Below, piece after piece: positions 9,188 through 55,021 of a stretch of 64,000 nucleotides of DNA. This DNA comes from a virus (taxonomy: Duplodnaviria; Caudoviricetes): IMG/VR virus record IMGVR_UViG_2738541308_000001, positions 1 to 64,000 of that record. The stretch is one strand, 5' to 3'. The notes below the pieces were generated by a model that made no database searches, was not told the DNA's origin, and saw only the letters and a list, made by a program, of their open reading frames with translations. Numbering within the stretch: the first letter of the stretch is position 1; each line of letters starts with the position of its first letter. The position numbers were made by a program, and so were the translations under genes.

Positions 9188-9372
9188 ACCGTGAAGACGC
9201 CATCGAAGCGCTCACCAGCAAAGGCAAGACCCGAGAACAGGCAGAAGCGTTCATCGACCTGATGGGAAGCGCATTCAAACGGTGTGGATGGATACCCGGA
9301 GAACCACTCGACGACAACGCCATTGCTGAACGGTGGGAAACATTCTTTGGACCCGAGGAGCAGAAGTTATGA
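9184..9372 (+). CDS. Hypothetical protein
   Basis: ATGA overlaps on both sides. Confidence 0.55.
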   Translation: MNREDAIEALTSKGKTREQAEAFIDLMGSAFKRCGWIPGEPLDDNAIAERWETFFGPEEQKL

Positions 9373-9803
9373 GCTCACGACTGTTCCATGGCGGGATCCC
9401 GGACCTTCGGGTCGGTGACCTGATCGAGCCGGGCCATAGTCGTCGGGAGCATGACGGCTGCCCGTGGTGCGAAGCCCGCGCCCGAGGTGAAGCGCACCTT
9501 GGGATGGACGGACCGTCCCAACAGTCAGGGCGGGTCTACGCCACAGAGCATCGGCTGTACGCCAAATACCACGCCTCACTGTGGGGGAGGGGCGATCTGT
9601 ACCGAGTTGAACCAGTCGGCAATGTCCAGCCCTCCGACGAGGATTCCATCCCGTCGGTCCACACGCCGGCGCTGAAAGTCGTAGCCGTCGTCGACCGCGC
9701 AATTCTCCTTACGAATAGCGAACGCAGACGGCTCTACCGCGAGTGGGGGATCGCCGACAACGCGAAGGCCCAATCGTCTCGATCAACACGAGGACTGAAA
9801 TGA
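9369..9803 (+). CDS. Arr-like ADP-ribosyltransferase domain protein
   Basis: LFHGG..DLRVGDLIEPG...VYAT...LYRVEPVG resembles the Arr family. Confidence 0.65.
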   Translation: MSSRLFHGGIPDLRVGDLIEPGHSRREHDGCPWCEARARGEAHLGMDGPSQQSGRVYATEHRLYAKYHASLWGRGDLYRVEPVGNVQPSDEDSIPSVHTPALKVVAVVDRAILLTNSERRRLYREWGIADNAKAQSSRSTRGLK

Positions 9804-11930: not shown

Positions 11931-12184
11931 GTGACAGTCGGCACGAATGGTCCGACCTTCGCCTCCGCATCCTCGCGCGTCTCGAACGCATGGACCCCTG
12001 GGACACGCAAGCCGAACAAGCCGTAACAGCGCTGAAAGATGTTATGGCACTGCATGAACCATGGCCTGAGCCCAGTGAACGGGCCTTCGTGAAACGAAAC
12101 GGCTGCCGGGCGTGCATGTGGCGGCGGCGCAAACGGGACTGCCCGACGGTCGTCGCCATCGGCAAAGCGCTCGGAATCACCTGA
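11927..12184 (+). CDS. Hypothetical protein
   Basis: LHEP...CRAC...CPTV motif. Confidence 0.6.
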   Translation: MSDSRHEWSDLRLRILARLERMDPWDTQAEQAVTALKDVMALHEPWPEPSERAFVKRNGCRACMWRRRKRDCPTVVAIGKALGIT

Positions 12185-12402
12185 CAGCAAGCACTTTTCA
12201 TTCACTCAGATGTCGAGTATCTAGGACGAAAGTAGACAACTATGGACTCAACTCGGACAGAGTTCGCACTCCGAACCGAGGTCGGCTCGATCTTCCCGAT
12301 GCTGTTCAGCACCCTCGAGGAAGCCCAAGCCGCAGCCCGATCCAGCGAGCGAAGCTTCGCGGTCGTGACGCGGACCGTCACGGAATGGGAAGAGGTCTCG
12401 CA

Positions 12403-13842
12403 ATGACGATCACCGTCACCGACCTGTTTTGCGGCGCAGGTGGATCGAGCACCGGCGCGACGCAAGTGCCTGGCGTCACGGTGCGTACGGCGGCGAACCA
12501 CTGGGAACTCGCGATCGAAACCCACAACACGAACCATCCGAACACAGATCACCAGTGTGCCGACCTTTCGCAGGTCGATCCTCGTCGGTTCCCTCGAACG
12601 ACGATCCTGTGGGGTTCGCCCGAATGCACGAACCATTCTCAGGCGAAGGGCGTCAAACGAAACCTCGACTCGACGCCGGACTTGTTCGGGGAGACGTTGC
12701 CCGACGCGGCTGCCGAACGATCCCGCGCAACGATGTGGGACATTCCACGGTTCGCCGAACATCACCGATACGAAGCGATCATCACCGAGAACGTCGTCGA
12801 CGCCGCGAAGTGGATCATGTTCCCCGCGTGGCTCCAAGCGATGGACCTCCTCGGATACAACCACCGGATCGTCTACATGAACTCGATGCACGCCCAGATC
12901 GGCGGACTTCCAGCTCCGCAATCAAGAGACAGGATGTATGTCGTGTTCTGGCTCAAGGGCAACCGCGCCCCGGACCTCGACAAGTGGACCCGACCGGAGG
13001 CGCACTGCTCGACCTGCGACGTCACCGTGACGGCAATCCAGGGCTGGAAGAAGTCAACCCAGTGGGGGCGCTACCGCTCGCAGTACCACTGGCGGTGCCC
13101 GAACGTGACGTGCCGCAACTCGATCGTCGAACCCCGTTGGCTCCCCGCTGCGTCGGCGATCGATTGGTCGATCATCGGGGAGCGAATCGGGGACAGAGCC
13201 AAGCCGTTGGCGCCGAAGACGTTGGCCCGGATCGAGGCCGGCTTGGCGAAGTACGCGGCACCATTCGTGCAACGCGCGTACACGCCGCGAAGCAACCTTG
13301 CGCAGATGTCGACGAGCACTGACGCCCACTTGCCGACGTTGACGGCATCAACCGTGCCAGCGCTGCTCGTGCCAGTGGAGGGTCGTGACGGGAAGCAAGC
13401 ACGGTCCGCGGCCGACCCGCTTCGTACGATGACAGCACGAAACGAAACTGCCGTCGCTTTCCTGTCGGTGATGCGCGGGCAGTCGAAGAATCATCATGTT
13501 GACGAACCGATTTCGACGGTGTCGGCAGGCGGAATCCACCACGCATTCGTCGTGCCGATGCGCAACAACAACACCGTGAAAGCGATCACCGATCCGCTCG
13601 ATACGTTCGCAGCAAACGGACTGCATCACGGACTGGCCAGTGCCGAGTCGCTGTCGGTCGACGACTGCTTGTTCCGGATGCTCGAACCGCACGAGATCGC
13701 AGCAGGAATGGCCTTCCCGTCGGACTACATGATCCTCGGCAACAAACGCGAACAGGTACGGCAGGCCGGAAACGCCGTGACGCCACCGGCCGCACGTGAC
13801 CTGATCGCGGCCGTCGCAGAATCGTTGGGGGTGGCGGCATGA
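12403..13842 (+). CDS. DNA (cytosine-5) methyltransferase
   Basis: DLFCGAGG (I), SPECTNHS (IV), ENV (VI), QSRDR (VIII), GNAVTPP (X). Confidence 0.92.
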   Translation: MTITVTDLFCGAGGSSTGATQVPGVTVRTAANHWELAIETHNTNHPNTDHQCADLSQVDPRRFPRTTILWGSPECTNHSQAKGVKRNLDSTPDLFGETLPDAAAERSRATMWDIPRFAEHHRYEAIITENVVDAAKWIMFPAWLQAMDLLGYNHRIVYMNSMHAQIGGLPAPQSRDRMYVVFWLKGNRAPDLDKWTRPEAHCSTCDVTVTAIQGWKKSTQWGRYRSQYHWRCPNVTCRNSIVEPRWLPAASAIDWSIIGERIGDRAKPLAPKTLARIEAGLAKYAAPFVQRAYTPRSNLAQMSTSTDAHLPTLTASTVPALLVPVEGRDGKQARSAADPLRTMTARNETAVAFLSVMRGQSKNHHVDEPISTVSAGGIHHAFVVPMRNNNTVKAITDPLDTFAANGLHHGLASAESLSVDDCLFRMLEPHEIAAGMAFPSDYMILGNKREQVRQAGNAVTPPAARDLIAAVAESLGVAA

Positions 13843-25093: not shown

Positions 25094-25450
25094 TCACACA
25101 GGTGACGCGTCGAACTGCGCCGCGATCCTCAGCAGCCGTTCCTGCCACACAACCGGCAACGAGACAGTCTCGCCTTCGCCGTCGGTGGCCGTGAACACCA
25201 CGATCCCGTAGTACGCCTGCCACGTGTACCCGAAGATCCGCGCAAGAGCCGTTGCCAACAGGTTGACTTCCGGCTCGGCGACGCACAGACCTTCGTCGTC
25301 GATCCACATGTCGACCTCGTCGGGAACGAGCCGCACCACATCCACTGACCTGCAATCGATCTCGCGATAGAACCCCTTCAACGTGTCGTCGCCGAGGTCT
25401 ACCAGCGTCGCTGCGCCGTCAGTGTCAATCCGTACTGCCTGAACACCCAT
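25094..25450 (-). CDS. DUF3846 protein
   Basis: MWIDDEG...NLLAT...YGIVVFT..D.EG. Confidence 0.8.
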   Translation of the reverse strand: MGVQAVRIDTDGAATLVDLGDDTLKGFYREIDCRSVDVVRLVPDEVDMWIDDEGLCVAEPEVNLLATALARIFGYTWQAYYGIVVFTATDGEGETVSLPVVWQERLLRIAAQFDASPV

Positions 25451-25868: not shown

Positions 25869-26168
25869 TCAGTAGTGGAACGCTGCGAACGCCTCGACGA
25901 CTTGCCAGTCGCCGTCGTGGACGTACTCGACGCTGGCACGTTCGCATGCGCGGTTGCGTGCCTTCACGTGCTGGTGGTGCTGCCCGGGGAACATGCCGGA
26001 CGGAAGGTCCTTCCATCGCGGCGTGTGGCCCTGGAGGATCTGAACGAGGTAGAACTGCTCATGCTCGTCGCACCGAGCGGGCACGATGTCGAATGCGGTG
26101 TCCGGTTCGGTGATGAGCATGAGTACCGCAACTGCGCCAAAGAGATTCGCGATCTGAGATGTGGGCAT
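25869..26168 (-). CDS. Small hypothetical protein
   Basis: aggagg RBS; enclosed by a 29-bp inverted repeat. Confidence 0.65.
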   Translation of the reverse strand: MPTSQIANLFGAVAVLMLITEPDTAFDIVPARCDEHEQFYLVQILQGHTPRWKDLPSGMFPGQHHQHVKARNRACERASVEYVHDGDWQVVEAFAAFHY

Positions 26169-26267
26169 GTTTCCTCCTGTGTGGGGGTGACGTGCCGACA
26201 ACCCTTAAAGGCTGCTCATGTCTGCTTTTCGTGCACCCTATGGGGCCACCGCCGGTGATGGGCGGGG

Positions 26268-26510
26268 CTAGGGCTTGACGCCCCACTCCCGCATTCTCGC
26301 GACGTACTGTCCGAGAAGTGCCGGTTCGTGTTGTGCGAGGAGCTGCTGATATGCCGACGGCAGGGCCAGTCCGTCCCGGAACTGTCGTTCCCGGAGGGTG
26401 CTGTGTACCCGGATTTTGCCGCGCTGGATCTTGTTGTGAAGCAACTGTTCTGGGGTGAGATGAGCGTTGCGCTCACGGGCTTTTTCTGCCAGGGTTGCGG
26501 TTGTTCGCAT
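26268..26510 (-). CDS. Small hypothetical protein
   Basis: ggaagg RBS; enclosed by a 23-bp inverted repeat. Confidence 0.6.
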   Translation of the reverse strand: MRTTATLAEKARERNAHLTPEQLLHNKIQRGKIRVHSTLRERQFRDGLALPSAYQQLLAQHEPALLGQYVARMREWGVKP

Positions 26511-26680
26511 AGGGGTGACCTTCCGTGAGTGGAGGGTGGTCCTATGGGGTGCACGAATGTGCTCACACTGTGGAGTTCTCAAGGATCATGGGGGAGCGGA
26601 TTTCACCCGACCAGATTCGGTGTCCGCACCCCAGCTGAGACTGGGGGGACTTACGGCCTTGCCGGCGGGCTTTCGTTGCC

Positions 26681-27087
26681 GGCTTCCAGTGGCCTTGTCA
26701 GTGACTGTCACTCACTGGCATGACCATAGTTTGCACTATGGGTGCATAGTCTGTCAACACTTGGGTTAGATCCCAGGTCAAGGGTGGTTTGTCATGCCCC
26801 CAGGTGGGAGCTAGGGGAGTGGCTACCCCCTGAGTGGTGGTCAGTATGGGCACTGCACTGGTGGCCCCCTGGTGGCCCCTGGGGGCTCAATTGCCCCTTG
26901 GGGTACCCAAGGGGGCAGGATGGCACTTTCTGGCCCCTTAAGGGCAAATAGGGGGCACTATGACCAAATAGCCAGAATTAGCCCTGAGGACTTGACACAC
27001 TATGCCCCCATAGTGTTACCTCAGTGCATGAAACCAGCTGCCCCACAACACAAAGGAGGTGAACCAATGACAATCAAACAACACCCC
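26681..27087. promoter_or_regulatory. Divergent promoter region 1, CpG-free, with CACTATG-N4-CATAGTG operators
   Basis: TTGACA on the - strand at 26752-26757 and on the + strand at 26992-26997, each abutting an 18-bp palindrome (26734-26751, 26998-27015). Confidence 0.8.
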
Positions 27088-27351
27088 GAAAGCCGACACG
27101 CCCACGCGATCCAGGCCTACCAAGCGATCCGAGACCTCGCCGACGCGCGAGCCCAACTCGACAATCTCCGCGCCGACGAAGGCCCGAGGTACGAGGCCCA
27201 ACTCGACGCCGTTGCCCGCGCCGAAATCGAACGCGCCCACTACGGCGACTATCCGGACACTCACAACCCGTTCTGGAACGCCGCCGACAACCCGTTCGGC
27301 AACACCCCGCGTCGACCCGAATGGTACGAGAACGACCCGGTAGACGCCTGA
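27067..27351 (+). CDS. Hypothetical protein, first gene of the rightward operon
   Basis: Strong aaggaggtg RBS. Confidence 0.7.
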   Translation: MTIKQHPESRHAHAIQAYQAIRDLADARAQLDNLRADEGPRYEAQLDAVARAEIERAHYGDYPDTHNPFWNAADNPFGNTPRRPEWYENDPVDA

Positions 27352-27468
27352 ATCAGGTGTCTACTATCCATCGCGACATCCGGTCGTCTACTATCCAACA
27401 CAACACACAGAAACCGGATAGAATGGCAATGCCCCTGGCAGGGCGAACAATCCGAGAGGACACCCACA

Positions 27469-27666
27469 ATGAACACCCCCAAAAACCGCAGAGCCCGGCA
27501 CACATTCCGGCCCACCGACAACCGCGAACCCATCGCTGTCGAAACCCTCGCGAACCGCATCCACCGCGAAACGCCGTTGCAGTCGTTCAAAGCCGACCAG
27601 CGCGCCATGATCCACGCCGAAGCACGGCGCAGCATGATCGCCGCAGGCAAGGAGCTGAAACTGTGA
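27469..27666 (+). CDS. Hypothetical protein
   Basis: RBS; overlap with next gene. Confidence 0.55.
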   Translation: MNTPKNRRARHTFRPTDNREPIAVETLANRIHRETPLQSFKADQRAMIHAEARRSMIAAGKELKL

Positions 27667-27986
27667 CCACCGCACTCGTCCGCAACGTCCACCTCACCGA
27701 CAACGAACGAGCCGCGCTCACCGAACTCGGCATCGACACCAACCAACGCGACGTCGCCATCACCATCACCGCCGACACGTCCTGGCTCAACCTCACCGAG
27801 CCACACGCATGGATCGCCGATTGGCACACCGGCACCGACCACACCGATCGCGACGACAGCGGCACTCTCGACGAACTGCCCGAGCGCATCCAGGCAATCA
27901 CCGACGACCCCGAGTTCAACCGGGGAGCCGGACTGTCCATCGAAATCTGCCGCTGGCACCTCTGGATCAACGGGCACCTGTCATGA
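27663..27986 (+). CDS. Hypothetical protein
   Basis: GTG start overlapping the upstream stop. Confidence 0.5.
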   Translation: MTTALVRNVHLTDNERAALTELGIDTNQRDVAITITADTSWLNLTEPHAWIADWHTGTDHTDRDDSGTLDELPERIQAITDDPEFNRGAGLSIEICRWHLWINGHLS

Positions 27987-28330
27987 GTCCCGAAACCTGC
28001 ACCCTCAACATCGAATTCGCCGAAGAGGTCTACCAGTACCTCATCGATCACCCCGACGAACACAACCAAGGGCAGTGGACGAAGACCACGCCATGCGGCA
28101 CCGTCCGATGCATCGCCGGAACCGCCTGCCACCTCGCCGGATACGAAATCACCCCTGCTTTCGGTGTCACCGGTGCGCTCGCCTACACAGCCCGCAAGCT
28201 ACTCGGACTCACCGCCTGGGAAGCCGACCGACTGTTCTTCCTCACCGACAACGAGGCAGCGCTGCACCTCTTCCGCGAATACATCGACCGCGCCGAAGAC
28301 GAACGCGACGCAGCCCTCGTCCAGCTATGA
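27983..28330 (+). CDS. Conserved actinophage protein (paralogous to 30146-30472)
   Basis: HPDEHNQGQW...CGTVRCIAG...ARKLLGL..EADRLF. Confidence 0.65.
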   Translation: MSPETCTLNIEFAEEVYQYLIDHPDEHNQGQWTKTTPCGTVRCIAGTACHLAGYEITPAFGVTGALAYTARKLLGLTAWEADRLFFLTDNEAALHLFREYIDRAEDERDAALVQL

Positions 28331-29335: not shown

Positions 29336-29656
29336 ATGCCCGCCCGCGACGCTCTGGCCGAGTTCCAGGCACTCGCAGAGCACTGGAAGGTCACCGCCCG
29401 CAAGCTCTACCACCGCGGCCGAACCCGCGAAGCGACGCAGTACGCGAACTTCGCCGACCAACTCGAAAAGACCATCGCGACAGCACCACTCGGCCAATCA
29501 GCGCCAGAACCGACCATCGAATACGGACTCCGCTGGCCCGACGGCCTCATCGTCCCGTGCACCCTCGACGAAGCCAAACGCTGGGTGCGCGACCCGACAC
29601 TGAAACTCGTCGCCCGGCACGTCACCGAATGGCACAACAAGAAGAAAGCAGACTGA
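29336..29656 (+). CDS. Hypothetical protein
   Basis: EYGLRWPDG...LVARHVTEW domain. Confidence 0.55.
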   Translation: MPARDALAEFQALAEHWKVTARKLYHRGRTREATQYANFADQLEKTIATAPLGQSAPEPTIEYGLRWPDGLIVPCTLDEAKRWVRDPTLKLVARHVTEWHNKKKAD

Positions 29657-29658
29657 CC

Positions 29659-30111
29659 ATGGCACTACCCGTCATCCGAGGCGAAACCGCCCGCCTCACA
29701 CGTGATCCCGAGATCCGATTCACCGGCGGCGGCAAAGCCGTCGTCAACCTCGACCTCGCGTTCAACAAGAGAATCAAGGACCGAGCCACCCAGGAATGGA
29801 AAGACGGACCGACGCTGTTCGTCAAAGGCACTGCCTGGGAACAGTTCGCCGAGAACATCGCCGAATCGCTGAGCAAAGGCGACGAAGTGATCGTCTCCGG
29901 CGAACTCGACACCGACACCTACGACAAACGTGACGGCACCGGCCAAGGCTTCTCGGTCACACTCGCCATCTACGCGATCGGCCCGAATCTCAAGAACGCC
30001 ACCGCCAAAGCAACTCGCACCGCCAAAAACGACGGGGGAGGGCAGGGTACCTACGGCGGCGGCACCAGCAACGGGTACAGCGGCGCGAGCAGCGACGAAC
30101 CACCGTTCTAG
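29659..30111 (+). CDS. ssb: Single-stranded DNA-binding protein
   Basis: LTRDPEIRFT..G, AENIAESLSKGDEVIV, Gly-rich tail ending DEPPF. Confidence 0.93.
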   Translation: MALPVIRGETARLTRDPEIRFTGGGKAVVNLDLAFNKRIKDRATQEWKDGPTLFVKGTAWEQFAENIAESLSKGDEVIVSGELDTDTYDKRDGTGQGFSVTLAIYAIGPNLKNATAKATRTAKNDGGGQGTYGGGTSNGYSGASSDEPPF

Positions 30112-41148: not shown

Positions 41149-41185
41149 CGTGGTGGCTCCCTCCGAATTGAACACGGAGAACACC

Positions 41186-42784
41186 ATGACCAAGTTCAAC
41201 ACCCCCGGAACACGAGCAACCGGACGACATCCGATCACCACCGACCGCCACCCATCCGGGCGGACCCACGAAGGCGCAGCCGGATACGCGCGTGACACCC
41301 AGTCCGAACTGTTCCTCCTCGCAGTGACCAACATGGTCGGTGAGAAGACGTTCTACGAATCCGCCGCCTTACGCGATAACCGCTTCGGCGAACTGATCCG
41401 CACACTCGCCGCGCAACCGGACCCCGACCTCTGGCTCACACGCTTCGCCGGATGGCTCCGCAACTCCGCGAACATGCGTTCAGCCTCCCTCGTCCTCGCG
41501 GCAGAAGTCGTCCACGCCCGCCTCGCAGCCGGCCTGGCCGGTGGCAACAGGCAGATCATCAATTCCGTGCTGCAGCGCGCGGACGAACCAGGCGAATTCC
41601 TCGCATACTGGCACACGAACTATGGCCGCAACCTCCCGCAGCCGGTCAAGCGCGGTGTCGGCGACGCCGCCACGCGCCTCTACACCGAGCGGTCTGCCAT
41701 CAAATACGACACCGCATCTCACAGTGTCCGCTTCGCCGACGTCATCCGTCTGACTCACGCCGCCCCCAAAGCCGAATGGCAGAGCGACCTCTTCACCCAC
41801 CTCGTCGGCGCCCGACTCGGCGTCGAAGACCTCACGATCCCCGAGTCGCTACTCATGCTGCGAGAAAACGCAGCCATGAAGGCACTGACTCCACAGCAGG
41901 CCGTCGACCTCCTCTTCACCCCGAACGACATCACCGACAACGCGTCCACTGCGCTCGCCGCTGCAGGAATGACATGGGAGCAGATCCCGTCCCTGATCAA
42001 CGGACCGTGGACGGCCGCGATGTGGGAAGCGATCATCCCGTCGATGGGGTACATGGCGCTGCTGCGGAACCTCCGCAACTTCGACCAGGCCGGGGTCTCC
42101 GATGAAGTCGCAGAGCGGGTATGTAAGCGGCTCGTAGATCCCGAGCAGGTAGCGCGCTCGCGACAGTTCCCATTTCGGTTTTACTCGGCGTACAAGCACA
42201 CGAACTCGCTGCGCTGGGCATACGCGCTCGAGAAGGCGCTCGGGATGTCGCTCGCAAATGTTCCCCCGATGCCCGGCCGCACATTGATACTGGTCGACCA
42301 GTCGCCGTCGATGTTCCCCGGCTACTATTTCTCGACCCGAAACAGCAGTGACATCACGCTCGCCGAGCAGGCCGCACTCTTCGGGTCCGCGCTTGCGCTA
42401 CGCGCGGAATCTGCGGATCTCGTCGGCTATGGCACCAATAGCTACTCGGTGCCATTCACCCAGGGTGAAGCTGTCCTGCGCACGATGACGAAGTTTCACG
42501 TTGAAGACGGCACCGACACGGCCGCCGCAGTCGTTCACCGATTCAAGGGCCACGACCGCATCGTGATCGTCACCGATGAGCAGACCCAGCGCAGTCGCTA
42601 CGGCCGCATCGACGACTATGTTCCGGCGGGTGTTCCGGTCTATACCTGGAATCTCGGCGGCTATCAGCACGGCCACGGCCCGTCCGGGAACGCCCACCGG
42701 TACACCTTCGGTGGTCTAACCGATCAGATGTTCGCGATGATCCCGCTCCTCGAGCGTGGCGCCAACACATCGTGGCCGTTCTGA
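41186..42784 (+). CDS. rsr: Ro60/Rsr TROVE-domain RNA-binding protein with vWA domain
   Basis: THEGAAGY, ELFLLAV, QRADEPGE, MGYMALLRNLRN, SRQFPFRF, LVDQSPSM (MIDAS), VTDEQ. Confidence 0.93.
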   Translation: MTKFNTPGTRATGRHPITTDRHPSGRTHEGAAGYARDTQSELFLLAVTNMVGEKTFYESAALRDNRFGELIRTLAAQPDPDLWLTRFAGWLRNSANMRSASLVLAAEVVHARLAAGLAGGNRQIINSVLQRADEPGEFLAYWHTNYGRNLPQPVKRGVGDAATRLYTERSAIKYDTASHSVRFADVIRLTHAAPKAEWQSDLFTHLVGARLGVEDLTIPESLLMLRENAAMKALTPQQAVDLLFTPNDITDNASTALAAAGMTWEQIPSLINGPWTAAMWEAIIPSMGYMALLRNLRNFDQAGVSDEVAERVCKRLVDPEQVARSRQFPFRFYSAYKHTNSLRWAYALEKALGMSLANVPPMPGRTLILVDQSPSMFPGYYFSTRNSSDITLAEQAALFGSALALRAESADLVGYGTNSYSVPFTQGEAVLRTMTKFHVEDGTDTAAAVVHRFKGHDRIVIVTDEQTQRSRYGRIDDYVPAGVPVYTWNLGGYQHGHGPSGNAHRYTFGGLTDQMFAMIPLLERGANTSWPF

Positions 42785-51268: not shown

Positions 51269-52021
51269 TTACCCGATGGCCTGCCTTCCGGCGCCGACGC
51301 GGGTGTTCCCTACGTCGGCACGGTCACCTGCAGCATGGCCGGCTCGGTAACCTTCGCCGCGGCCGACGGAGCGCCCGCGACCCTGGCCGATCATTCCGGC
51401 GTACTTCTTGTACATCGCCGCCTGCGCTCGATCGAAGTCGCTCTTGAGCATCAGGGACGCTCCGGTGCCGCCGTTCTCACGGTCGTACGTCGACGCCGCA
51501 TTGTCCTCGCTCTCCTGGATACGAGAACCGATGCGGTCCGCGAACCCGATCATGAATTCCGCGCGGTGTTCGGCGGTGAGGCGGGCTGAATCCTTCGGAT
51601 CCCGTCCTGCGAACGGATTCGCTGGAATAGCTTGCGTTGCAGATGAAAGCAGCTGCGGCATCAGGAGTTGGATCAAGAACTTCACGCGCTCGAGATGACG
51701 GGACAGCCCGAAAATCTGCAACACATGCTCACCATGCAGTTGAACGGCGTCGCAATGCAGGGACTTGGATACGCGATTGACCAGATACATCTTCTCGTAG
51801 CCGAACCGGTCACCGGTGTAGGTGAACGTTACCGCCTTCATTGTGTCGCCATCCACGTTGCCGGAACCGGCAGAACCACGGGCCATTGCTTCGTCGATGC
51901 CGTACTTCGCCAGGAGTTCGAATGCCTTCTCGCGCAACGTATCGGCCTCGAGTGTACCTTCGACCGAATCCGCCTTTGCGAACAGACCCTTGATCCTGTT
52001 GAGCATCTTGTTGTCAACCAT
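51269..52021 (-). CDS. DUF2786 protein
   Basis: LNRIKGLFAKA...EA.....KA.ELLAKYGI. Confidence 0.85.
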   Translation of the reverse strand: MVDNKMLNRIKGLFAKADSVEGTLEADTLREKAFELLAKYGIDEAMARGSAGSGNVDGDTMKAVTFTYTGDRFGYEKMYLVNRVSKSLHCDAVQLHGEHVLQIFGLSRHLERVKFLIQLLMPQLLSSATQAIPANPFAGRDPKDSARLTAEHRAEFMIGFADRIGSRIQESEDNAASTYDRENGGTGASLMLKSDFDRAQAAMYKKYAGMIGQGRGRSVGRGEGYRAGHAAGDRADVGNTRVGAGRQAIG

Positions 52022-52144
52022 TGTGCGTGTCCTAACCTTTCGAGACTGAGGGTGAATTCCGAACGTCAGGGTGGGCACCGGGGACGGGTGCCCACCCTTG
52101 CTCCGGCGAGTGCCAGCTCGCCGGAGCCCACTGTCGAACGATGG

Positions 52145-52666
52145 TCACTCTTCGATGACTTCTTCTGCGGTGACTCCCGATTGGGGAGCGTCATCGCCGT
52201 CATCGTCGAGGTCGATGGTCTGCTGGCCGGCGTTCTTTCCGTCACCGATTGCCTTCTGCCGGCTCTTACGCTTCGGCTTTGGGGCCTCGATCGGATTGAA
52301 CATCCATTCAGCGGTGTGATTGCCCAGGTAGTTGATCAGCAGATCAGAACTCTTGAAGTCGATCGCTGCGCCGTCGGCGCCGATCTTCTTCTTGAGGTAC
52401 CCGGTTTGTTCTGCGATGCAGAACCATTCACCACCGACGTGTTCCCATACGAGTTGGATTTCACGGGCCTTACCTTCGGGAGATCCGTCGGCTTTGACCT
52501 TGTGTGCGCGGACGGTGATCCGCGCAACCACCTCGTTGACCACGCTGTGTTCGACGGTGTAACTCCAGCCCATGAGGAGCATCGCTCCGAGCACGTTCGT
52601 GAAGTCGTCCGGAAGGGTCTCAGTCTTGAAAACCGGGACATACGCTTCGGTGGACTTGCTGGACAT
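52145..52666 (-). CDS. Hypothetical protein
   Basis: ggaaagggg RBS; acidic tail. Confidence 0.7.
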   Translation of the reverse strand: MSSKSTEAYVPVFKTETLPDDFTNVLGAMLLMGWSYTVEHSVVNEVVARITVRAHKVKADGSPEGKAREIQLVWEHVGGEWFCIAEQTGYLKKKIGADGAAIDFKSSDLLINYLGNHTAEWMFNPIEAPKPKRKSRQKAIGDGKNAGQQTIDLDDDGDDAPQSGVTAEEVIEE

Positions 52667-52828
52667 AATGGTCCCCTTTCCGAGGGATCATCGGCAGCAA
52701 CACCATTGGGCATTGCTGCCTTGTGGTTGTGGGTGTCTCACGCTATTGAGTTCTCAAAGATCATGTGCTCGAGGGTTTCTCCCCTGGCCTATTCAGGGTT
52801 CCCAAGAGCCGGCATTCAGACTTGTGAC

Positions 52829-53352
52829 GATATGAAGTTGTTGGGACAGACCAACACTGAGGTTTTCCAGACTCTGAGCTGGTATCCAGATTGCTTGCCA
52901 GCTGGCCTGTGTTGCTGGCCCCTACTGGCTTGCTGATGCATAGTTTGCCCTATGGGGGCATAATCTGTCAACCCTGCAGGTGGGAGGCTATTTCTGGGGC
53001 AATTTATGGGCCTTGTTGACCTCTCAGGGCTGTGAACTGCCCCTTGGGCTGCACTGCACCACTGGCCAACCTCAGGGATGGGTGGTCCTGGCCCTGAGAT
53101 CAATTCTCAGAGCCTGTGAGTCACTATGGGTACATAGTGCCCAGAATGGCCCAAGGATTGCCCAGGGCCTCCCTCAGGGGCATTAATTGCAATAGTTGTA
53201 ACAGAGCTTGCACTATTGGGGCATAGTGACCTAATGTCAGGGGCACACCAGCTAGTCAAGCTGGCCCAGGGGGCAAGTGCCCCAGGGGAACATCCCAAAC
53301 CAGTGAGGTCACTCATGGGAGAACATCACCCAAATGTCACCACAGCCCAGCC
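52829..53352. promoter_or_regulatory. Divergent promoter region 2, CpG-free, with CACTATG-N4-CATAGTG operators
   Basis: TTGACA on the - strand at 52966-52971 abutting an operator at 52948-52965; further operators at 53122-53139 and 53211-53228. Confidence 0.8.
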
Positions 53353-53579: not shown

Positions 53580-53890
53580 GCGACCAAACGACAGTCGCCG
53601 TCATCGAATACACCGATCACCACGGTGAAGTCAGATACTTCGACGACGGAGTCTGGGCTGACATCGAACTACCGAGCATCCGTGCGCACGCCGGCAGATA
53701 CCTGTTCACCAACGAATCTCTCACCTGCACCGGCGACCACAAAAACGGAAGTTTCACCGTCGACTTCGGTGGCGGAGAAACGATTTGGTACGCATGGCGA
53801 CTGCTGACCCTCGACGCACAGGACGCCGCGAACACCAGAATCATCGGTTGCGATTCCGACGCGACTGTGACTGAACGGAGCACCACATGA
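53576..53890 (+). CDS. Hypothetical protein
   Basis: ATGA overlaps. Confidence 0.6.
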   Translation: MSDQTTVAVIEYTDHHGEVRYFDDGVWADIELPSIRAHAGRYLFTNESLTCTGDHKNGSFTVDFGGGETIWYAWRLLTLDAQDAANTRIIGCDSDATVTERSTT

Positions 53891-54654
53891 TCGAACTCGA
53901 CGGAATCACCCCGTCGAAGCAGATGCTCGACGACCTCGCAGCGGAAGGTCGACCCGTCATCCTCAACTTCTCCCGCGGCAAAGACTCAGTCGCCGTCTGG
54001 ATCGAACTCGAACGACGAAACATGCAGGTCATCCCGATCCACAAGTCGATCGTGCCGGGACTGAAGTTCGTCGAGGACGATCTCAAACGCTACGAAGACT
54101 ATTTTCAAACACATATCGTCGACCTGCCGGCAGATGCGTTCTACCGCATGCTCAACAACCTCACCTTCCAGCCGCCCGAACGCTGCGCGATCATCGAAGC
54201 TGCAGGATTCCCGTCGCCGACACGCGAAGAGTGGGACATGCTCATGCGCGACAACTTCGCCGAGGACGACACCTGGATCCTCGACGGCGTGCGGGCAACA
54301 GACTCCGCCCAAAGGCGAATGGCGATCATGCGCCACGGCCCGATCAAACACCGCACCCGACGCCAGTCCGTCATCTGGGACTGGGGCATCGCAGACGTGC
54401 GACGGGCGATCAAGGACCGCGGCATCACACTCGGCCCCGACTACGAGTGGTTCGGCAAATACCTCGCCGGAAAAGTGAACCCCAGACACAGAGGCGGGCT
54501 CGACGGCAACGGTCGGTCCTTCGACGGAATTCGCTACGACTTCCTCAAGCCGATCCGCGACCACGCCCCCGACGACTACCAGCGAATCCTGCACTGGTTC
54601 CCGCTGGCTGAACTCGAACTGATGAGAATGGACATGATCAATGGCTCTGTCTGA
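53887..54654 (+). CDS. PAPS-reductase-like PP-loop (adenine nucleotide alpha-hydrolase) protein
   Basis: NFSRGKDS PP-loop, GVRATDS..RR, IWDW, DYEWFG...RSFDGI. Confidence 0.85.
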   Translation: MIELDGITPSKQMLDDLAAEGRPVILNFSRGKDSVAVWIELERRNMQVIPIHKSIVPGLKFVEDDLKRYEDYFQTHIVDLPADAFYRMLNNLTFQPPERCAIIEAAGFPSPTREEWDMLMRDNFAEDDTWILDGVRATDSAQRRMAIMRHGPIKHRTRRQSVIWDWGIADVRRAIKDRGITLGPDYEWFGKYLAGKVNPRHRGGLDGNGRSFDGIRYDFLKPIRDHAPDDYQRILHWFPLAELELMRMDMINGSV

Positions 54655-55021
54655 CGAAGTGAAAGCAAAGCTCAAAGCCGGAGGCAATCGCGCGAAGTTC
54701 TCCCGCGCAGACGTCGTCTCCGCCTTGAAAGCGAAACCCCACCCCGACCCCCTCGCCGACGTCGAATACACCGACGACATCGAGCACGACACGAAGGCCG
54801 AACTCAACGCGCTCGGCAAAGGCTTGTCCGGAGCGTCGAAAGAGTGGGCTGAACAGTTCGGCCAGATGAACGACTCCGAGTACTGGGTCGCACTGTGCTT
54901 CAAGAACCGTGCAGCGAAAGATGCCTTCCTCGCCAGCGCCGGCGTGCTCGAACTAGGGGACAAGTACCTCGACGGTCACAAAGCCGCAGAGATCCTCGGA
55001 ATCGAATTCGAGGGCCGGTAA
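54641..55021 (+). CDS. Partner of the PP-loop protein
   Basis: DSEYWVALCF....KDAFL...GDKYLDG; overlaps the upstream gene. Confidence 0.7.
   Translation: MALSDEVKAKLKAGGNRAKFSRADVVSALKAKPHPDPLADVEYTDDIEHDTKAELNALGKGLSGASKEWAEQFGQMNDSEYWVALCFKNRAAKDAFLASAGVLELGDKYLDGHKAAEILGIEFEGR

Follow-up and report, generated by a model that had tools for sequence, protein, structure and literature searches.

CpG-free divergent control regions in an actinobacterial prophage and its relatives

What keeps a single dinucleotide out of the control DNA of a phage? The window analysed here, a stretch of 64,000 nucleotides that forms part of the 84,259-bp provirus record of an actinobacterial prophage (IMG/VR virus record IMGVR_UViG_2738541308_000001), holds two regions from which CG is entirely absent, desert 1 at 26682-27086 and desert 2 at 52830-53351 (coordinates are window positions unless another genome is named). 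The CG-free control region runs in a phage lineage of 62-68% G+C and is present in every member examined, and the way in which these regions vary speaks for purifying selection against CG itself rather than for an effect of composition, repeats or ancestry. The explanation that we prefer, to which we would give a probability of roughly 45%, is that the deserts are divergent control regions of a temperate siphophage, probably looped or wrapped, whose assembly a CpG-reading agent would disturb.

Desert 1, assigned to neither strand, is 405 bp long and 55.8% G+C (111 C and 115 G), so that 31.5 CG would be expected from its mononucleotide composition. It has none: the CG at 26680-81 is followed by the next one at 27087-88, exactly the gap of 407 that a sequence-only reading of the window had described. 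In 20,000 shuffles of the desert the mean was 31.5 CG and the minimum 17, and the Poisson probability of finding none is about 2e-14. The same reading had placed CG among the commonest dinucleotides of the window and expected dozens in the gap, and CG is indeed the commonest of all (7,470 copies, observed/expected ratio (o/e) 1.23, at a window G+C of 61.8%). Over the whole genome the CpG o/e is 1.22-1.24, the depletion being limited to short regions. In a sliding-window survey of the CpG content of the prophage, as had been proposed, the deserts stood out: among 82,118 windows of 405 bp avoiding both of them, the poorest has 18 CG and the mean is 48, so that every other window holds at least 18. 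Ranking the CG gaps across the 84,259-bp provirus yields only one other of comparable size, 524 bp at 52828-53352, which encloses desert 2 (522 bp, no strand, 0 CG against 39.4 expected), the putative paralogous control region; the third longest gap is 98 bp. Chance or base composition as the cause is excluded by the shuffles, the 405-bp windows and the intergenic controls given below. Desert loci do show a drop in G+C, from 0.62-0.68 in the genome to 0.50-0.58 in the deserts, which is a feature of targets of Lsr2-type silencers; this drop does not explain why CG is the only word to be lost.

In its terminase and portal genes the provirus is about 67% identical, at the DNA level, to the Gordonia phages VanLee, Cafasso, Morgana, Aleemily and ObLaDi, which are now placed in the family Kruegerviridae (PMC12451628). 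All four that were examined (VanLee, Cafasso, Morgana and, over its right 50 kb only, Aleemily; ObLaDi was left out of the counts) have a CG-free or CG-poor region. VanLee, at 67.8% G+C, has a single CG-free stretch of 340 bp, in which 39.7 CG would be expected; the second longest gap in this phage measures 84 bp. A long operon of small leftward genes flanks the stretch on one side and a 'PAPS reductase-like' gene on the other. The stretches at the same location in Cafasso, Morgana and Aleemily measure 516-674 bp and contain 1-2 CG. Aleemily carries a second CG-free stretch of 176 bp (67015-67191; L063 30797-30973) in another divergent intergenic region, and this one contains CATAGTG and CCTGGTGG, words common to the main deserts.

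The 'PAPS reductase-like' or PP-loop protein encoded downstream of desert 2 (53887-54654, + strand; phrog_2302, E 1.9e-20; no Pfam match at E < 0.01) is a marker of the lineage. A protein alignment search with it among species-representative genomes yielded 14 loci, namely one near-identical 3.8-kb contig and 13 Nocardia prophages. In 14 out of 14 the gene is directly preceded by a CG-free stretch, which is 203-525 bp long and would be expected to hold 15-39 CG, and the next longest CG gaps in the 20-kb loci are 40-93 bp. The gene order is conserved as well: a DUF2786 gene, a homologue of the 173-aa gene, a leader, the desert, the PP-loop gene and a gene for a 126-aa partner. Together, the PP-loop gene and its partner (54641-55021, +; no Pfam or PHROG match) are syntenic in 18/18 desert loci, whereas the PP-loop gene occurs in 0/25 control loci. 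These controls, which are terminase-related IMG/VR loci, likewise include no CG-free stretch (0/25); in the seven whose G+C reaches 57% or more, the longest CG gaps span 28-72 bp. A search of IMG/VR with a word from the leader, described below, returned six loci, all with a CG-free stretch, but in five of them the gap lengths equal those of GTDB loci; these five probably duplicate the GTDB prophages and were not counted as independent. A one-mismatch match to that word elsewhere in one Nocardia genome (L062) is not a member of the group; it has no CG-free stretch, its longest gap being 68 bp. Other searches were negative: megablast of 26000-28000 against phage records found no match, viral contigs searched with the single PP-loop protein and with the 94-aa rightward gene of desert 1 gave no related loci, and the 34-nt pattern of the promoter-like cassette matched none of the viral contigs. 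The 3.8-kb contig (L034), 99% identical to the region of desert 2 and the PP-loop gene, is labelled Streptomyces sp.; its 59% G+C would be unusually low for Streptomyces, and the more distant relatives are all from Nocardia and Gordonia.

Non-coding DNA elsewhere in these genomes keeps its CG. The intergenic region on the integrase and helix-turn-helix (HTH) repressor side of the provirus (1559-2100, 53% G+C) has 39 CG against 37.7 expected, and the 35 other intergenic stretches of VanLee that reach 60 bp have, over 5,132 bp in total, 580 CG (o/e 1.11), a rate at which the probability of no CG in 339 bp is 2e-18. The Cro/repressor intergenic region of VanLee has 13 CG (o/e 0.94). The same holds for DNA that adjoins the deserts, namely the non-coding leaders at desert 1 (171 bp, 11 CG) and desert 2 (163 bp, 6 CG), and for the flanking part of the rightward gene at 27087-27351, which is CG-rich (45 versus 27.9 expected). 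Because intergenic DNA elsewhere keeps normal CG, a Markov model of such regions, the explanation by which the sequence-only reading would have given up its own proposal, does not account for the depletion in the deserts.

The case for selection on CG itself is made by copies that have diverged around its absence. Among the 13 Nocardia copies, 233 of 318 desert columns are variable and pairwise identity averages 65% (minimum 51%), with few changes in length despite this divergence. Their alignment nevertheless holds 8 CG against 73.2 expected from independent neighbouring columns, while the other dinucleotides tested range from 0.73 to 1.16 and the adjoining leader has 198 CG versus 196.1 expected. 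Natural variants of desert 1 itself, taken from four public runs, behave in the same way: none of 17 substitutions creates a CG, for a null mean of 3.15 and a probability of zero of 0.018. These two results uphold the selection against CpG in a divergent regulatory region that had been proposed from the sequence. When 18 regions are pooled (6,845 bp; Cafasso is left out, its locus beginning inside the region), they contain 5 CG, an o/e of 0.01, and among words of two to four letters none is depleted to a similar degree; CA/TG, at 1.58, and CC/GG, at 1.34, are in excess, GC stands at 0.92 and TA at 0.61. The two window deserts, those of two Gordonia genera and those of the Nocardia group cannot be aligned with one another, window against Nocardia deserts giving no trustworthy alignment, and they obey the same CG-free rule. 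Such fast sequence change with CG kept out therefore argues for selection against CG itself.

Could the pattern arise with no selection on CG at all, through the turnover of CG-free repeats or binding words, or through a local mutation process that destroys CpG? Most of the VanLee stretch consists of 9- and 12-nt units in tandem (GCCACCAGG and GTGGCCACCAGG), certain short words are strongly over-represented (CACCAG/CTGGTG with 15-21 copies in the Gordonia phages, GGGGCA/TGCCCC with 14 copies in the window), and the CA/TG excess resembles a deamination signature. However, only the VanLee stretch is built from head-to-tail CG-free units; in deserts 1 and 2, Tandem Repeats Finder detects only arrays of 22-29 bp, which leads us to reject tandem repeats as a general cause, and the Nocardia copies are non-repetitive and variable at most columns, yet still CG-free. 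A local mutation process would moreover need sharp borders, and the neighbouring non-coding DNA is unaffected. An origin without selection on CG is thus very improbable. As an aside, a gene annotated as 'membrane protein' in VanLee (82424-82726, -; L003 32424-32726) lies wholly on the tandem array and would read as Pro-Gly-Gly(-His) repeats, the unit lengths being multiples of three; it could be a real repeat protein or a mis-called open reading frame.

What do the deserts contain instead of CG? Both deserts are non-coding and separate divergent leftward and rightward operons, desert 1 being internal to the prophage near its middle. Desert 1 bears two promoter-like cassettes that face outward, and from their sequence we infer two outward promoters. 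The rightward cassette (26992-27030, +) consists of TTGACA at 26992-26997, an 18-nt spacer at 26998-27015 and TTACCT at 27016-27021; the leftward cassette (26719-26757, -), with TTGACA at 26757-26752, an 18-nt operator spacer and CAAACT at 26733-26728, is a 39-nt inverted copy of 26992-27030 (77% complementary). In both, the spacer is a putative operator, an 18-bp palindrome of the form CACTATG-N4-CATAGTG, which with up to 3 mismatches has seven matches in the genome, six of them within the two deserts. The copy at 26998-27015 is a perfect palindrome without mismatch, the one at 26734-26751 (CACTATG-N4-CATAGTc) has one mismatch, and a degenerate operator-like copy at 26956-26973 has three; desert 2 has copies at 52948-52965, 53122-53139 and 53211-53228. 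Three copies of the putative operator form the spacer of a promoter-like cassette. A distance of 264 bp separates the outer copies of desert 1, and one of 263 bp those of desert 2, which corresponds to about 25 helical turns. A/T-rich dinucleotides recur with a period near 10 bp; among 559 genome windows, desert 2 ranks within the top 1% for this periodicity and desert 1 within the top 5%. Of the leftward cassette of desert 1, 31 of 34 bases recur in desert 2, and beyond the shared elements the two deserts are dissimilar.

In the explanation that we prefer, deserts 1 and 2 would be paralogues, a pair of non-coding regions that control a temperate actinobacterial siphophage, each with outward promoter-like cassettes whose 18-nt spacers would be copies of one palindromic operator. 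Purifying selection keeps the self-complementary CG out of the whole of such a region, the promoter-like cassettes, the DNA between them and a short rightward leader alike. This DNA would most likely assemble into a looped or wrapped complex of regulator and DNA that shuts or opens both operons together. A reader of CpG in duplex DNA, whether a protein that binds CpG, a DNA ligand specific for it or a modified base in CpG context, would disturb this assembly, and each CpG that arises would be removed for that reason. The removal of 30-40 out of about 10,000 CpGs cannot shield a genome from a cutter or from damage; the benefit must therefore lie in events on this DNA itself, for example in the binding of regulators and polymerase or in looping or wrapping.

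Several observations weigh against this proposal. The loop is deduced from operator spacing and periodicity only, and the periodicity signal is modest. Both TTGACA boxes claimed by the sequence-only reading are in place, but a generic sigma-70 scan calls neither cassette, and their -10-like hexamers, TTACCT and CAAACT, are poor, so that the boxes stand and the promoters stay putative. No repressor is tied to the candidate operator; the classical HTH_3 repressor at 1184-1558 adjoins the integrase, 25 kb from desert 1, and CG is normal there. No CpG reader was identified, a C5-methyltransferase being absent from all four Gordonia relatives, and the avoidance of restriction palindromes in VanLee, detailed below, argues against blanket CpG modification. 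The 13 Nocardia copies share ancestry and do not constitute 13 independent tests. Finally, two soil RNA libraries yielded contigs over 26789-27500 and 26851-27500, which start upstream of the predicted rightward promoter, and one RNA-library contig apparently spans desert 2; the region may be partly transcribed, or the RNA libraries may contain DNA. These data are contigs, not reads, with a depth of 3-11, and neither the contig ends nor the uncovered 26759-26788 are evidence of transcript starts.

The exclusion of CG might instead follow from DNA mechanics alone: an operator loop of about 260 bp, or negative supercoiling between the divergent promoters, would demand certain properties of bending, twisting or melting and so disfavour CpG steps, for instance as prone to Z-DNA, with no reader being involved. 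The conserved operator spacing of 264 and 263 bp, the few length changes among Nocardia copies at 65% identity, the 10-bp periodicity in A/T and G/C dinucleotides and the enrichment of GG/CC and CA/TG would all fit. However, a single CpG should barely alter the mechanics of 300-500 bp, yet its exclusion is near-absolute (o/e 0.01); GC, a step of equal stability, shows no such avoidance (o/e 0.92), and among the other flexible pyrimidine-purine steps CA/TG is enriched and TA much less depleted (o/e 0.61). We know of no physical property that separates CG this sharply, and regard a purely mechanical cause as unlikely.

The RNA-library contigs raise a different possibility, that the constraint acts on RNA: most of the region would be transcribed as long or overlapping leaders, in which a CG-reading ribonuclease or RNA-binding factor has to be avoided. 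Because CG is its own complement, avoidance at the RNA level would look alike on both DNA strands. Besides the contigs over 26789/26851-27500 and the one that apparently spans desert 2, the CG-free state of the rightward leader and of the first codons of the rightward gene is in line with this idea. Yet the transcribed leftward leader has normal CG (11 in 171 bp at desert 1; 198 versus 196.1 in Nocardia), as do the coding regions, and the contigs are possibly contaminating DNA. To our knowledge no CG-reading RNA factor has been found in bacteria, and we consider a constraint on RNA quite improbable. Regarding the distribution of this DNA, 26300-27500 or close variants of it are present in 20 public runs from 15 studies, comprising biofilm, wastewater, gut and factory metagenomes and six soil RNA libraries; from this variety of habitats, the host or phage seems widespread.

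The sequence-only reading had offered yet another cause: virion DNA would carry a CpG-specific modification, and this mark would block RNA polymerase at the promoters which must fire first. In its full form, the covalent mark would be set by a phage enzyme, a C5-methyltransferase or the PP-loop enzyme, and the promoters of the incoming DNA would stay CpG-free. As a self-complementary word, CG is a typical target of DNA enzymes. The provirus encodes a C5 cytosine DNA methyltransferase (12112-13842, +; 576 aa; PF00145, 57.9 bits; phrog_116, E 1.4e-69), in which about 230 residues separate the conserved N- and C-terminal motif blocks, and the PP-loop enzyme and its partner lie downstream of the desert in 18/18 loci, just before the terminase genes. 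The methyltransferase is not shared by the carriers, though: with PF00145 found in 0/4 Gordonia relatives, a phage C5-methyltransferase is rejected as the general cause. The association of PP-loop gene and desert is confounded by shared ancestry, more distant phages have a PP-loop gene without a large intergenic region beside it, and other promoter regions, such as the Cro/repressor intergenic region of VanLee and 1559-2100 of the window, have normal CG.

VanLee also strongly avoids palindromes that contain CG, with ATCGAT at 0 versus 29.8 expected, TTCGAA at 0 versus 11.6, CCCGGG at 5 versus 48.1 and TCCGGA at 4 versus 27.3. These CpG sites hence appear to be exposed to restriction, and blanket CpG protection would make such avoidance needless. 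Other palindromes are avoided too (GCATGC, 0 versus 10.7 expected, in VanLee; AGATCT, 1 versus 13.7, in the provirus), and palindrome avoidance in both genomes probably represents the footprints of host restriction systems. According to PMC8320454, the VanLee genome is circularly permuted, and a fixed first-entering end is therefore unlikely. First-entering DNA of the T5 type is accordingly rejected, given this permutation, the internal position of desert 1 and the CG-rich flanking genes. The claim of a modification that blocks polymerase at first-firing promoters thus finds no support in a shared methyltransferase, in the treatment of CG sites or in genome layout, and we deem it improbable.

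The genes and leaders around the deserts complete the picture of the preferred divergent arrangement. Rightward of desert 1, the first gene (27067-27351, +) encodes 94 aa, has GGAGG upstream and no Pfam or PHROG match, and the CG-free stretch extends 20 nt into it; the operon that starts here continues through SSB (29557-30111), DUF2303 and a TROVE/Ro60 protein. The TROVE (Ro60-like) gene is located at 41150-42784 (+), and VanLee also has a TROVE-type protein, annotated as Ro-like RNA-binding protein. Leftward, the small-gene operon begins with an 80-aa gene (26268-26510, -) of no Pfam or PHROG family and includes a DUF3846 protein further along (25094-25450). The first leftward gene at desert 2 (52145-52666, -) encodes 173 aa and has homologues at the same position in relatives, with tblastn matches in 15 loci; it is followed in the operon by the DUF2786 gene (51269-52078, -; PF10979, E 1.7e-10; phrog_421), syntenic in 14 loci. 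The 80-aa and 173-aa products have no homology to each other, and nine of 10 flanking proteins scanned against Pfam are without a family.

Between desert and first leftward gene lies the leader, at 26511-26681 (-) for desert 1, where its CG is normal, and at 52667-52829 (-) for desert 2. The word TCACACTGTGGAGTTCTCAAGG, at 26563-26584 in the former, recurs left of desert 2 and in 13/13 Nocardia prophages, in which the corresponding position is about 9372-9640 (L035-L047); the leader constitutes a conserved, CG-containing element of about 250 nt and is 88% identical among the 13 Nocardia prophages. Its predicted consensus fold has the conserved word CUCCACAGUGUGAAC base-paired to the region where ribosomes bind ahead of the first gene, and two hairpins show compensatory changes, so the element may be a translational control leader. 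It belongs to no Rfam family: over L001, L034 and L046, Rfam searches at E <= 1 gave chance-level matches only, none of them within leaders or deserts. An upstream open reading frame in the leader word (MILENSTV / MIFENSIA) was considered and rejected, its frame being broken in 3/13 Nocardia copies (L036, L046 and L047).

Independent of its cause, the pattern reveals a strong and specific selective force on phage regulatory DNA, which is kept CpG-free while the remaining sequence evolves fast. Whether a DNA mark, a principle of DNA binding, a chemical defence or the physics of a loop is behind it, it would add a new rule for reading phage genomes, and the culturable members VanLee, Cafasso, Morgana, Aleemily and ObLaDi, which grow on the harmless Gordonia rubripertincta, make direct testing at the bench possible. 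More tentatively, and with considerable doubt, we suggest that an unrecognised reader of bare CpG in double-stranded DNA exists in Mycobacteriales hosts, in Kruegerviridae-like temperate phages or in soil, which would make the control regions 'inverse CpG islands'. Proteins, base modifications and CpG-specific ligands among natural products, for instance intercalators or cross-linkers, are all conceivable as such a reader, and the master control regions would then be the only DNA of the genome invisible to a CpG-reading activity. As far as we know, readers of bare CpG are familiar from eukaryotes and, as methyltransferases, from a few mollicutes, not from actinobacteria or their phages.

How do these regions relate to known systems? 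A literature search found no paper on CG-free zones in actinobacteriophages, and in the VanLee announcement the words 'repeat' and 'intergenic' have 0 occurrences each and the region goes unmentioned, so the phenomenon of CG-free control regions appears to be undescribed. The closest architectural parallels are the operator/promoter switches of temperate phages that involve cooperative looping, OL-OR of lambda and the CI wheel of 186. As in these, there are divergent units, palindromic putative operators placed in the spacers of promoter-like cassettes, an operator that is repeated at two distant regions, and operator pairs spaced by a whole number of helical turns. Unlike there, no repressor gene is tied to the operator, the HTH repressor gene at 1184-1558 standing apart in DNA of normal CG, and we know of no lambda- or 186-type switch that has been described as excluding a dinucleotide. 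A precedent for the local, selected avoidance of a short DNA word is the first-step-transfer (pre-early) region of T5 and BF23, which is free of restriction sites and thought to act early. In the deserts, by contrast, the word is only 2 bp long and only non-coding control DNA is cleared, the flanking genes being CG-rich; moreover, desert 1 lies mid-genome and VanLee is circularly permuted and has no fixed first-entering end. Vertebrate genomes and their viruses, in which CpG is depleted via methylation and deamination and CpG is sensed by host factors, provide the third comparison. The deserts differ from them in that the host is bacterial, that no CpG methyltransferase is shared among the carriers, and that depletion is confined to 0.3-0.7 kb of a CG-rich genome (o/e 1.2); what they have in common is the loss of CG with TG/CA in excess, and a self-complementary, two-letter word as that which would be read.

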